The notes: generated by a model from the letters alone, not told the origin. Positions 16,638-60,082 are shown, counted from the first letter of the whole stretch. The stretch: 63,748 nt of DNA, filler included, from Neolecta irregularis DAH-3 (GCA_001929475.1; 7 parts of 7 records of this genome joined end to end with filler, not necessarily neighbours in it); one strand, 5' to 3'. Translations and numbers: made by a program.

Positions 16638-18094
16638 ATGAAGCGAGCCCATTCCGCTATCTCCACGGACTTTTCCGCCCGTCCGCTATTAGATTCCTAC
16701 AGGCCTTCTTCTCCGAATAAAAATAGCCTCCGTCCACGTTCAAAATGCGCCTCTCCATCCTTCGACGGATGTAGTCATATCGATAAAACCTATCAGATTC
16801 TGGGAAAACTCGGGGAAGGTACATTCGGGTAAGACCGCTTTGTAGGCCAGAACTTACTTCGTAGAGAGGTTTATAAAGCTCGGAAACGAGGACATGGGGA
16901 TTATGCACCTTTATATGCGTTGAAGAAAATATTGATGCACAACGAGAAGGAAGGGGTATAATAGAAGCTTGACAGACCCGTTGCTGATGATTATCTATAG
17001 TTTCCGATAACAGCCCTCCGGGAAATAAAGATTATAAAAATGCTAAATCATGTTAATGTAATTCCGTTGGTGGAAATGACTGTTGAACGAGGCATGCAGC
17101 ATTCATAAATGATTTATTGACGTGGTATAGGAGACCGGAAACAGAGGAAACGAGGATGGGTTTATATGGTCACGCCGTATATGGATCACGACCTCGCTGG
17201 GTTACTGGAAAATCCAAGCATCAAATTTACACCGGGTCAGGTCAAATGTTATATGAAGCAGCTGCTCCAGGGTGTGGGATACCTTCATCAAGCATATGGC
17301 TTTATCAAGATATTATTAACTGTCTAGAGTAAAATTCTTCATCGAGATATCAAAGGTATATTAGTTTGTGCATGCACGGTTGACAGAGAGCGGCGAATCT
17401 TTTAATAAATAACAGAGGGATTTTAAAAATAGCCGATTTTGGACTGGCGAGACCATACGATGAAGATCCACCGAGTCCTGGCGCTACGGGACCTCCCATT
17501 GCACAGAGGGATTATACAAATTGCGTGGTGACGAGATGGTATCGGCCGCCGGAGCTATTGCTCGGCACCCGAAGGTATACTACTGCGATTGATTTATGGG
17601 GCGTGGGGTATTTGTTTTTGCAATCTGGGGCCCGATCTGATTCCTAGATGCGTGATGGGTGAAATGTTGAGGGGAACCCCTATTCTGCCGGGAAGTTCTG
17701 ATTTGGACCAGCTGGACAGGATCTTCAGGCTGGTTGGGTCGCCTTCGGAGGAGAACATGCCCGGGTACAGCCGGTTTCCGGGGTGTGAAGGAGTGCGGAT
17801 GTTCAAGACATACCCTCCGACGATTCATGGGCAGTTTGTGGGGTATGGGTGCCTTTGCCGGCCGAATTTTGAAGCAGTAGATTCGGCATGCTGACGGTGT
17901 CGCTGCTGTCTGGCCTGCTGACACTGGATCCGCAGCGGCGCCTGGGGGCTCTTGAGGGGCTGAAGCACGAGTGGTTCTCCAAAGAGCCGTTTCCAGCGGA
18001 GCCGGCCGATCTGCCGCCGTACGAAGCGAGCCACGAGTACGACCGGCGGATAAGCCGCAACGGCAACCACCCGCCTCCGGCGCCGACCGGCGGG
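16638..18094 (+). CDS. BUR1: Bur1/Sgv1/Cdk9 cyclin-dependent kinase; 3' end lost in gap (7 introns, 2 GC-AG)
   Basis: [95 protein letters not shown]. Confidence 0.95.
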
Positions 18095-18223
18095 NNNNNN
18101 NNNNNNNNNNNNNNNNNNNNNNNNNNNNNNNNNNNNNNTTAATTAATTAANNNNNNNNNNNNNNNNNNNNNNNNNNNNNNNNNNNNNNNNNNNNTTTTTT
18201 AAAAAGTCGTCTGACCTCTATAG

Positions 18224-18820
18224 CTGTATGAGAACTGCCAGAGATTGGTGTGTATTTCATTCGCAAACGAAATGGCCGATGCATGTAGATCTCACGGCAT
18301 TGATTCTTCTGAGGTCGCGATAGCGGCTGCTACAAAACCTTTTGGCTACGCACCTTTCTATCCCAGCCTTGGTATTGGCGGTCACTGTATCCCAGTGAAT
18401 CCATATTATTTGTTTTCAAACAACGACTTTCCCCTGCTTCGATACGCTACAGAAGTAGCGAAAGAACGACCAAGTCGTCTTGCAGATAAGGTTCTTGAAA
18501 ATTCTAGTATTGCCGTCGAAGATGTTCGGGTTTTGGTCGTTGGCGTTGCCTTTAAACGTGGACAAAGCAATATTTCCCATTCTCCCGGAGTAGCATTTTC
18601 TAGACAGCTACTTTCCAGGAAAGTCGGAAAAGTGGCTTATTGTGATCCTCTGGTGGCCCAAGAACACGTCCCAGACGTGGCACAATACTGTGATTGGTCG
18701 AAAGAGGCTCTCGAGAGAGATTTTGATATTATTGTTGTTGGGTTAAAGCAAGAGGGGCTCGATTTTAGTGTCCTTGAAGGACTGGGAGGTTGTGATGTAG
18801 TGTGGCATTGCCTGAAATGA
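18224..18820 (+). CDS. UDP-glucose/GDP-mannose dehydrogenase family (UDP-GlcNAc/ManNAc dehydrogenase-like), C-terminal exon; 5' part lost in gap
   Basis: LYENCQRLVCISFANEMADAC, AAATKPFGYAPFYPSLGIGGHCIPVNPYYL, VLVVGVAFKRGQS, YCDPLV; preceded by CTGAC...TAG acceptor. Confidence 0.9.
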   Translation: MYENCQRLVCISFANEMADACRSHGIDSSEVAIAAATKPFGYAPFYPSLGIGGHCIPVNPYYLFSNNDFPLLRYATEVAKERPSRLADKVLENSSIAVEDVRVLVVGVAFKRGQSNISHSPGVAFSRQLLSRKVGKVAYCDPLVAQEHVPDVAQYCDWSKEALERDFDIIVVGLKQEGLDFSVLEGLGGCDVVWHCLK

Positions 18821-19131
18821 ACTGATAGCGTCGTTTGGTAGAACATTGGCTATTCCTCGCATCAGACGTGTCGAAGTTGCTTCTTTGTCTCTTAGTTTAT
18901 TATACAAATCAATTTTGGAAGGCGGTAGTATACGGAGGCTCCCTATAGCCAGGTTCGACTGTGGCCCACGCCCAACACCATCCCGACATTATGCAATTTA
19001 CCTTGATTGCTCGCTATCGGGGTGCTTTCTGTATACTGGCAAACAACGGCTATATTGGATTCTTTCTGAGCGTATATTCGCTACTCTGAAACCGAATCCA
19101 CTGGACAGAACAGAGCGGCGCCTGTTCATGT

Positions 19132-58400: not shown

Positions 58401-58592
58401 AATGGGGTGATTGCCAAATCGCGCGAATACGTTTCAGGGCTGCTATACTATCCCAACCTATACATTATCCGCGAAGATGGAGAGCCGTCTCTTCGCCAAT
58501 GGGTGCTTTCCCATCTTATCGAGGACAGAACGGATAGAGGATATAGCTATATTCAGTTTTTGAATCTACTGAAGGAGAAGGTGAATGCGTAA
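55427..58592 (+). CDS. SEC24: COPII coat subunit Sec24 (~9 introns)
   Basis: Q/P-rich N-terminus, RCTLNAIP...[13 protein letters not shown], zinc finger [11 protein letters not shown]...[16 protein letters not shown], trunk domain, [12 protein letters not shown], gelsolin-like [14 protein letters not shown]. Confidence 0.97.
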
Positions 58593-58808
58593 TTGGGGTA
58601 TGTAAGTGTAGAAGGAACAAAACAAAGAATGAACAGCTTTGTGTTTTCGAGGAAGCTGCCTCTGTGTTTTACTGGGCCACGTCTTTGTAGGTGAAACTGT
58701 GTTCACCGCTCCTTTATTTCCCAGCTCCACACCTCTGAAACTACACCTCTGCAATTTAAATCTCCTCCATTCCATTCGCACCGGTTGCGTTTTATCCATA
58801 CCTACACC

Positions 58809-60082
58809 ATGGCTCGTGCAGGCAGAAAAGTGAGCTTCAACGTCTCTGACAAGTATGAAGTCCTCGACGTGGTCGGGGAAGGGGCTTACGGCGTTGTCTG
58901 GCATGGTCTCTAACTCGACCGCATTAATTGAAACAGCTCTGCAACTCACAAACCAAGTGGCCAGAAAGTGGCTATTAAGAAGATTACGCCGTTTGACCAT
59001 TCGATGTTTTGCCTCAGAACATTGCGCGAGATGAAGCTATTGAGATATTTTAACCACGAGAACGTACGCCTTCACCAGATGCTCAAAGGTCACTTTGACC
59101 GGGTAGATCATTTCCATTCTAGATGTAGAAAAACCGAAGACATATGAGACGTTTACTGAAGTGTATCTCGTCCAGGTGCATACTTCCCCTAAATAGGGGC
59201 TGATTTGAAGGAATTAATGGAAACTGATATGCATCGCGTAATCCGAACTCAAGACCTCTCAGACGACCACTGCCAATATTTTATCTATCAAACTCTCCGT
59301 GCGCTTAAAGCATTGCACAGTGCAAACGTGTTACATCGGGATTTGAAACCTTCGAATCTTTTGCTAAATGCAAACTGTGATCTCAAGGTCTGCGATTTCG
59401 GATTAGCCAGATCTGCTGCTTCTCAGGAAGATAACTCTGGGTTCATGACGGAATACGTGGCGACTAGATGGTATCGGGCGCCGGAAATCATGCTCACTTT
59501 CAAAGAGTATACAAAAGCTATTGATGTGTGGAGTGTGGGATGTATACTCGCTGAAATGTTGAGCGGGAAGCCTCTTTTTCCGGGAAAAGATTGCATGTTT
59601 TATTATACATGGATTAAATCTGATGAAAACAGATCATCATCAATTGACATTGATCCTGGAAGTCTTGGGGACCCCTACGATGGAAGATTATTACGGGATT
59701 AAATCGCGTCGAGCTCGAGAGTATATACGAGCTCTACCATTCAAAAAACGGGTTCCATTCGCCACCCTGTTTCCTCGAGCGAATCCACTTGCATTAGACC
59801 TTTTAGAAAAGATGTTGGCATTCAATCCGACAAAACGGATTATTGTAGAAGACGCCCTTCGACATCCGTACCTTGATCCTTATCACGATGCAGACGACGA
59901 GCCCTGTGCGCCTCCTATCCCTGAATCATTCTTCGATTTCGATAAACATAAAGATCAACTTGGGCGCGGGGCGTTAAAGAGTATGCTCTTTTTTGACTGA
60001 GACATGTAGCTAATTGCAAGCGTTGATTTACAACGAGATTATGAATCATCATGCTGCAGGGGTACCTACGGAGGCGGCTTGA
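58809..60082 (+). CDS. FUS3: Fus3/Kss1/Spk1-type MAP kinase (5 introns, 2 GC-AG)
   Basis: [84 protein letters not shown] (TEY motif). Confidence 0.96.

Follow-up and report, generated by a model that had tools for sequence, protein, structure and literature searches.

GC-AG introns in the Neolecta sample

In a stretch of 63,748 bases composed of seven unlinked contigs of Neolecta irregularis DAH-3, an ascomycete that diverged early (hereafter the window), introns that start with GC instead of GT are, with high probability, real introns of the U2 type. Such introns, with a C at the second intron position (+2), would amount to about 7-12% of the introns of the sample, lie in ordinary, mostly essential genes, and be recognised with the aid of intron length and the branch site. 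An earlier reading of the same stretch (the original prediction) had listed fourteen GC...AG intervals, whose coordinates and strands turned out to be exact, all of them starting with GC, ending with AG and spanning 32-40 nucleotides (nt). Removal of the exact interval restores the frame and the conserved protein firmly in ten cases and probably in four, and the predicted introns are graded below as secure or probable, together with a further candidate that is undecided.

17092..17130, + strand: GC-AG intron of a CDK9/BUR1-like kinase gene, 39 nt, phase 1, donor GCATGC; probable
17292..17327, + strand: GC-AG intron of the same BUR1-like kinase gene, 36 nt, phase 0, donor GCATAT; secure
19520..19555, - strand: GC-AG intron in the aspartyl-protease domain of DDI1, 36 nt, phase 0, donor GCAAGT; secure
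23514..23553, - strand: GC-AG intron of RRN7, 40 nt, phase 1, donor GCATGT; secure
28348..28385, + strand: GC-AG intron of an ECM33-like repeat protein gene, 38 nt, phase 0, donor GCAGGC; secure, on frame grounds
41380..41417, + strand: GC-AG intron of a DUF1264-like gene (name from the original prediction), 38 nt, phase 1, donor GCATCG; secure
41755..41792, + strand: GC-AG intron, last of the DUF1264-like gene, 38 nt, phase 1, donor GCATGC; probable
46231..46269, + strand: GC-AG intron in the first BRCT region of LIG4, 39 nt, phase 1, donor GCATGA; secure
46720..46758, + strand: GC-AG intron in the second BRCT region of LIG4, 39 nt, phase 2, donor GCAGGC; secure
47017..47057, + strand: candidate GC-AG intron at the extreme end of LIG4, 41 nt, donor GCATTT; undecided
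47473..47509, + strand: GC-AG intron of PUS4 (TruB family), 37 nt, phase 0, donor GCATGA; probable
50785..50816, + strand: GC-AG intron of CHL1, 32 nt, phase 0, donor GCAATT; probable
52824..52860, + strand: GC-AG intron of CHL1, 37 nt, phase 1, donor GCATGT followed by ATGT; secure
58901..58936, + strand: GC-AG intron in the glycine loop of a Fus3/Kss1-type MAP kinase (MAPK), 36 nt, phase 2, donor GCATGG; secure
59593..59632, + strand: GC-AG intron of the same MAPK gene, 40 nt, phase 1, donor GCATGT; secure

If left unspliced, 13 of the 14 listed introns bring in a stop codon in the frame of the preceding exon, either within the intron or as its final codon. The only one without such a stop, 23514, shifts the frame instead, its length not being divisible by three. 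The intron at 59593 combines a read-through stop with a frame-shifting length, and lengths of this kind are also found at 28348, 41380, 41755 and 47473. Since the fourteen introns are spread over five of the seven contigs and nine genes, they are not a local oddity.

To place introns independently of the donor, a spliced protein-to-genome aligner was used in which all 16 donor dinucleotides had equal cost and only the AG end was required, with seven homologues per gene. At the 45 loci supported by at least four homologues, the plurality donor is GT in 30 and GC in 6, the latter with 7/7 votes at CHL1 52824 and at both MAPK sites, 6/7 at DUF1264 41380, 5/7 at LIG4 46231 and 4/6 at CHL1 50785. 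At the remaining nine loci the plurality donors belong to seven different dinucleotides and are poorly supported, several being slides that give an identical protein; they act as a control for alignment noise, hence only GC stands out among the non-GT donors. In addition, family hidden Markov models (HMMs) were built from the fetched homologues, leaving Neolecta's own proteins out, and used to score rival isoforms.

Evidence at the individual sites

Concerning the BUR1-like kinase, the intron at 17092 contains an in-frame stop if left unspliced, and each GT alternative removes at least 8 residues and relies on an AG at a long distance from the branch site. Its flanking exons match positions 60-85 and 95-143 of the human CDK9 chain 3blh_A, and the GC model is exactly collinear with CDK9, the spacing being 30 residues plus one split codon. 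On the Pkinase profile the flanking exons correspond to positions 44-67 and 70-116, with the intron in a variable loop; a Pfam search gave no match for the 25-residue exon of this kinase. The second intron, at 17292, has an in-frame TAG at its end, its left exon matches Pkinase through the last residue (profile position 116), and all GT alternatives remove at least 6 residues of that match.

The DDI1 intron joins a left exon equivalent to positions 42-64 of Pfam Asp_protease to a right exon equivalent to 65-90, with no gap; read-through meets an in-frame stop and GT alternatives remove 6-20 residues. A similarly tight junction is seen in RRN7, where Rrn7_cyclin_C positions 5-46 run to the last residue of the left exon, the split codon is position 47 and the right exon covers 48-163. 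Here there is one near GT alternative, of 49 nt, whose branch-like motif lies about 20 nt from the AG. In the ECM33-like gene the intron links open frames of 111 and 83 codons, the unspliced form stopping after 9 codons, and the sole GT alternative is 104 nt long and removes 22 residues. Judged by reading, the register of a repeat of about 23 residues runs on across the junction; Pfam gave no match for either exon and did not confirm the name ECM33, which comes from the original prediction. Finally, without splicing at 47473 the PUS4 frame stops at the second codon, and splicing joins it to the frame that starts the conserved catalytic-loop motif. Its rival is a GT donor 6 nt upstream, at 47467 (GTCAAG). 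The next large exon carries TruB_N and TruB_C_2 (Pfam), and the left exon had no match in a Pfam search.

In the DUF1264-like gene, the GC form at 41380 scores 15.5 bits above the GT alternative 41373-41419 (family HMM of 53 homologues). If the last intron of this gene, at 41755, is left in, which is the only other outcome, translation ends 6 codons inside it; if it is removed, the protein gains a C-terminal segment corresponding to the final part of the family profile, worth 9.2 bits over stopping. Pairwise alignment placed this intron with only one of seven homologues. In LIG4, the form spliced at 46231 scores 31.5 bits above that with the GT donor at 46174, the choice of the GenBank model P0241, and splicing of 46720 together with the GT intron 46897-46936 gains 30 bits and completes the second BRCT region, the GT alternatives to 46720 removing 11-13 residues. 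For the candidate at 47017, which has a good branch motif and no GT alternative, the spliced and unspliced LIG4 forms both end within about 10 codons and differ by only 1.6 bits.

The GC form of the CHL1 intron at 50785 scores 11.9 bits above the form that uses the GT donor at 50770, which shares its acceptor and gives an intron of 47 nt; the donor being weak, both forms may be used. At 52824 the GC form exceeds read-through by 86.5 bits and the best GT alternative, 52816-52849, by 11.4 bits, and is the only one to align helicase motif VI of CHL1 without a gap. It had been claimed that this GC donor must be used in spite of a GTATGT located 4 nt downstream, and the isoform scores bear this out: use of the GT donor at 52828 throws CHL1 out of frame and gives a score equal to that of the truncated form, which leaves GC as the only productive choice.

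In the MAPK gene, homologue alignments show three GT-AG introns besides the two GC introns. Limiting donors to GT costs about 219 score units over 58901 and 59593; the GT-only alignment drops the N-terminal exon, GT alternatives to 58901 remove 9-28 residues, and 59593 has no GT alternative in frame. In other ascomycetes, unspliced open-frame proteins diverge from the kinase sequence at the very residue where intron 59593 lies, which suggests that this intron position is probably old and that the C arose in place. The age of intron positions was checked for the MAPK gene alone.

How much a protein would suffer if the cell used nearby GT donors, or did not splice at all, differs between sites, and this bears on the view that the GC calls are annotation artefacts and that the real proteins are shorter or slightly different. 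The loss would be small where an in-frame GT donor is close, as in PUS4 (2 residues fewer), RRN7 (3), DUF1264 41380 (3), CHL1 50785 (5) and BUR1 17092 (8), or where the protein could simply end, as at 41755 and 47017. It would be severe elsewhere, since the GT or read-through forms destroy the glycine-loop exon of the MAPK, motif VI and the C-terminus of CHL1, BRCT2 of LIG4 and the protease core of DDI1, and score 9-86 bits lower. The GenBank models of CHL1 and LIG4 contain GT-AG introns only, as this view would have it, and in the gene finder described below an arbitrary second donor type, singly paired with GT, yields about as many introns as GC. Against these stand the donor-agnostic alignment, unanimous or nearly so at six GC sites, the lack of any GT alternative at 41755 and of one in frame at 59593, and the C at +3 of the alternative PUS4 donor, which occurs in 0 of 48 verified GT donors. 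Taken together, we regard artefacts as a very improbable account of the GC introns.

Errors in sequencing or assembly that turned T into C at +2 can for practical purposes be dismissed. Although the assembly is fragmentary, with an N50 of 16 kilobases (kb), its stated coverage is 199-fold (PMC5309816), and fourteen independent T-to-C errors would be needed, all falling precisely on intron position +2 and with a preference for sites followed by ATG.

Consequences for the published gene models

The GenBank models compared here are N. irregularis DAH-3's own CHL1 and LIG4, 99% and 100% identical to the exons of the window, respectively. The CHL1 model, P0121 (50051-52849, + strand), has 788 residues, uses the GT donor at 50770 and is truncated at the read-through stop of 52824. 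The LIG4 model, P0241 (43206-46732, + strand), has 881 residues and uses a GT donor 57 nt upstream of 46231, giving an intron of 96 nt, and then reads through 46720 to a stop at 46732. It has no BRCT Pfam domain, unlike most of the full-length homologues listed, and also departs from the homology-based structure at the GT introns 43437-43474 and 45223-45257. These GT-only models score 98 bits (P0121) and 174 bits (P0241) below the GC-aware ones, the LIG4 gap being partly due to the other differences. Gene prediction limited to GT donors thus truncates or mis-splices proteins, as is seen in both of the two models inspected.

Neolecta is the reference genome for the origin of complex multicellularity in ascomycetes, and its protein set is widely used in comparative work. 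As the CHL1 and LIG4 models are truncated and have lost conserved domains, apparent losses of genes or domains in Neolecta may be artefacts. If about 10% of donors are GC, with four to five introns per gene, a GT-only annotation would harm a large share of the genes.

Proportion of GC donors

To obtain a denominator, a small gene finder was trained on 56 homology-verified introns. With GT and GC donors allowed, it predicts 115 introns under a strict penalty, finding 50 of the 56 verified introns with 53 predictions in those ranges, and 163 under a lax one, finding 54 with 61 predictions, a span consistent with the hand count of about 140 introns in the window made previously. Fourteen GC introns in 115-163 correspond to 9-12% and ten in 150 to 7%, which agrees with the proposal that roughly one intron in ten has a GC donor. 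GT-AG introns account for 98.7% in fungal annotations (PMC7072748), and under a rate of 1.3% the probability of 14 in 135 is 3e-9 and that of 10 in 150 is 3e-5, the whole range being 3e-5 to 4e-10. As far as can be predicted from these counts, the GC-AG share of the sample would be roughly ten times the fungal norm of about 1%.

When all 16 donor types are allowed at once, the parse recovers all 14 listed GC sites, and GC comes first among the non-GT donors with 15 introns vs 3-11 (11 vs 1-4 at a stricter penalty). The gain in total score is also largest for GC (+52.8), the other types gaining 5-20 apart from AT. In the window the gene finder found no GC introns that the earlier reader had missed. 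Its extra GC calls were rejected: 54812-54847 (- strand) is actually a GT-AG intron starting 3 nt upstream, 33336-33375 falls within a tandem repeat with no open frames, and 44758-44797 is a GT intron shifted by 3 nt, with 2/7 votes. Initial runs were dropped as well, one that missed most genes (15 models, 50 introns) and another with 231 introns and fused genes. A count based on signals only (donor, branch motif and AG within 30-60 nt) showed no enrichment even for GT, and is therefore powerless. No relatives close enough to reveal conservation of the C at +2 turned up, the best matches other than Neolecta itself being about 50-60% identical (CHL1, LIG4).

Several points weigh against a raised share of real GC introns, or reduce the weight of the numbers given above. 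The gene finder was tested on the same 56 introns on which it was trained, and the share rests on 64 kb and on a denominator (115-163) that comes from our own gene finder. The 8 GC introns among the 56 in verified genes are biased upward, because the genes were picked for their GC candidates, and SEC24, the sole gene tested without such a choice, has 0 GC introns out of 7. When a single additional donor type was allowed beside GT, 14 introns resulted for GC and 9-20 for the fourteen controls, that is, no discrimination, and the total-score gain of AT (+41.3) is close to that of GC. Four of the 14 GC introns have a tolerable alternative, either a nearby GT donor or simply stopping. The mechanism proposed below (weak donor, intron definition and T-to-C drift) draws, moreover, on statistics from 62 introns. 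It should be noted that, the gene-finder controls being only moderately discriminating, the claim is carried by the homology tests and not by the gene finder alone.

The small size of the sample also leaves room for a lucky draw, in which the GC-AG introns are real and their share across the Neolecta genome exceeds the norm only slightly, at 1-3%. Two of the seven contigs, like SEC24, have no GC introns, and the earlier reader listed GC introns because they were conspicuous. The presence of GC introns in nine genes on five unlinked contigs, together with the probabilities computed at a 1.3% rate, makes such luck improbable.

Donor sequence, branch site and intron type

The 14 GC introns were compared with 48 verified GT introns located at 40936-60049. 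The latter are 32-44 nt long and the former 32-40 nt, both with a median of 38, and there is no difference between them in length (p = 0.85) or branch-site score (p = 0.93, Mann-Whitney). Most branch motifs read CTAAT, CTGAC or CTGAT (CTRAY-like) and place the branch A 5-8 nt from the AG. A T-purine-A core at this distance is seen in the best branch motif of 13 GC introns out of 14, that of RRN7 being degenerate. The guanine plus cytosine (G+C) fraction is 0.41 in GC introns vs 0.38 in GT introns.

Donors do differ between both sets. GT donors of the window are weak, more degenerate than the usual fungal consensus and far below it in strength, with T at +4 in 26/48 and T at +3 in 10/48. A at +3 is present in 34/48 of them vs 14/14 of the GC donors, G at +5 in 18/48 vs 11/14 (p = 0.013), A at +3 with G at +5 in 10/48 vs 11/14 (p = 1.4e-4), and the triplet ATG at +3 to +5 in 7/48 vs 8/14 (p = 0.003). 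Only three GC donors (GCATCG, GCATAT and GCAATT, without G at +5) fit the statement of the original prediction that many are devoid of a compensating consensus. The significant enrichment of GC donors in A at +3 and G at +5, relative to GT donors, is the classical compensation and suggests that normal U1/U6 pairing keeps its role and that position +2 is not free.

No donor of the U12 type, [AG]TATCCTT, and no TCCTTAAC-like branch site (consensus from PMC3033335) was found in the donors and 3' regions of the 14 GC introns. Nor do these introns share sequence beyond the level of GT introns: local alignments of the inner parts give mean scores of 5.35 (max 10) for GC-GC, 5.45 (max 13) for GT-GT and 5.43 (max 10) for GC-GT pairs. 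Being no more alike than GT introns, they are not a spreading, introner-like repeat.

Comparison with other GC-AG introns

GC donors are known to have a stronger remaining donor, which compensates the mismatch to U1, and pairs of a GC and a GT donor at a distance of 4 nt have been described (PMC3167603). The Neolecta introns resemble ordinary U2-type GC-AG introns in their GC donor, AG acceptor, standard branch site and compensated donor, and the pair 52824/52828 in CHL1 is an instance of the 4-nt arrangement. They differ in proportion, ordinary GC-AG introns being about 1% in animals, plants and fungi vs about 7-12% in the Neolecta sample.

A many-fold raised GC-AG share, as in this sample, is known from algae, namely 39.6% in Aureococcus anophagefferens, 22.2% in Micromonas pusilla and 7.7% in Chlorella sp. 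(Iwata and Gotoh 2011, PMC3033335). The genomes of these algae have 66-70% G+C, the excess was linked to base composition, and the U1 5' end is standard, the cause being left open (PMC3033335). Neolecta, in contrast, has 44% G+C (PMC5309816), with 37-48% in the window. A further difference concerns repeats: the GC introns of Neolecta are not a repeat family, whereas the GC-AG introns of Micromonas belong to introner repeats.

The cyst nematodes Globodera rostochiensis and G. pallida have 3.46% and 3.56% of non-canonical splice sites, mostly GC/AG; this excess was found only with hand-corrected models, the first automated annotation underestimating them a hundred-fold, and renewed prediction that admitted GC donors gave better models (PMC4901422). 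Globodera is thus like Neolecta in its mid-G+C genome and in an annotation failure such as that of the CHL1 and LIG4 models. It belongs, however, to the animals, its donor consensus is strong, CAGG[T/C]AAGT (PMC4901422), and the share in the Neolecta sample is about three times higher and its introns are far shorter.

Judged by titles and the openings of abstracts, no account in print of Neolecta donor types was found, and the words 'intron' and 'splice' are absent from the main text of the Neolecta genome paper, whose supplements may give intron statistics. Neolecta would be the first fungal lineage found with a raised GC-AG share, and without high G+C as an explanation. If confirmed, it would uncouple an excess of GC-AG introns from high G+C, by which the algal cases have been explained, and a fungus of medium G+C whose introns are very short, whose donors are weak and whose GC donors are in ten-fold excess would be a test case for the role of position +2 where introns are recognised as units. 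Public RNA sequencing data of N. irregularis exist (PMC13263728, PMC5309816).

Proposed mechanism

The features described above suggest a model in which introns would be recognised as whole units, by means of a narrow length window and a strong module formed by the branch site and the 3' end. The donor motif would then carry little information, and a T-to-C change at +2 would be nearly neutral, persist and accumulate. The C would be tolerated especially where A at +3, G at +5 and often G at -1 keep the pairing with U1 and U6, and GC introns would most likely have arisen in place from older GT introns. The earlier suggestion that 5' splice-site recognition is relaxed or length-defined thus stands in part: the high GC share, the weak donors, the lengths of 32-44 nt and the strong branch site agree with it, and the compensated GC donors speak against a +2 position that has become free.

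A different cause would be a changed spliceosome, in which the U1 5' end, the U6 ACAGAG box, U1-C/Luc7 or Prp8 is blind to U vs C at +2. Degenerate GT donors, with G at +5 in fewer than half, would fit such a change, and so would 52824, where GC is the productive donor despite the consensus GT site 4 nt downstream. Compensation of the classical kind at +3 and +5 is, on the other hand, to be expected as long as standard pairing retains its importance, C at +2 remains a minority, and no other non-GT donor is enriched. For the GC-AG-rich algae, with their standard U1, protein components or base modification have been suggested (Iwata and Gotoh, PMC3033335). On balance we find a changed spliceosome unlikely, and favour tolerance of C at +2 by introns that would be recognised as units.

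A broader statement joins these elements: about one in ten donors would be GC genome-wide, the highest share known to us in fungi, brought about by a change, particular to this lineage, in the reading of the 5' splice site (U1/U6 pairing, U1-C/Luc7 or Prp8) together with ultra-short, length-measured introns. This combined reading is conceivable, and we hold it as doubtful. If it were true, a third or more of the published GT-only models would be wrong or truncated, which would distort comparisons of gene content.

Only two spliceosome parts are encoded in the window, and both are branch-site factors and not donor factors; U1, U6, U1-C, Luc7 and Prp8 all lie outside it.

15572-15763, - strand: full-length U2 small nuclear RNA (snRNA) gene, Rfam RF00004, 128 bits, with a standard branch-binding GUAGUA box
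10314-13244, - strand: SF3B1/Hsh155, a protein of the U2 small nuclear ribonucleoprotein that holds the branch site; 977-codon open frame with SF3b1 domain and HEAT repeats

Other features of the window

The contigs are joined by artificial linkers, each made of 44 N, TTAATTAATTAA and 44 N, and genes that adjoin them are cut, e.g. the BUR1-like kinase gene, which ends at 18094.

14538-14637: linker, contig join
18095-18194: linker, contig join
21270-21369: linker, contig join
34765-34864: linker, contig join
39214-39313: linker, contig join
49430-49529: linker, contig join

A short tandem repeat, in a stretch without open frames, misled the gene finder into introns. The amidohydrolase gene listed below is allantoinase-like by reading only, and a Pfam search with its 251-codon exon, 53910-54662, gave no match at E 0.001. 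SEC24 lies directly upstream of the MAPK gene on the same strand, and this adjacency is seemingly also found in Pezizomycotina, where fused SEC24+MAPK models occur (P0049 from a Pyrenodesmia bin and P0059 from Ophidiomyces).

about 33330-33420, + strand: short tandem repeat, unit ending ATAATATCTATCAG
53900-55200, - strand: amidohydrolase gene with two short GT-AG introns near its 5' end
55427-60049, + strand: SEC24 followed by the Fus3/Kss1-type MAPK gene

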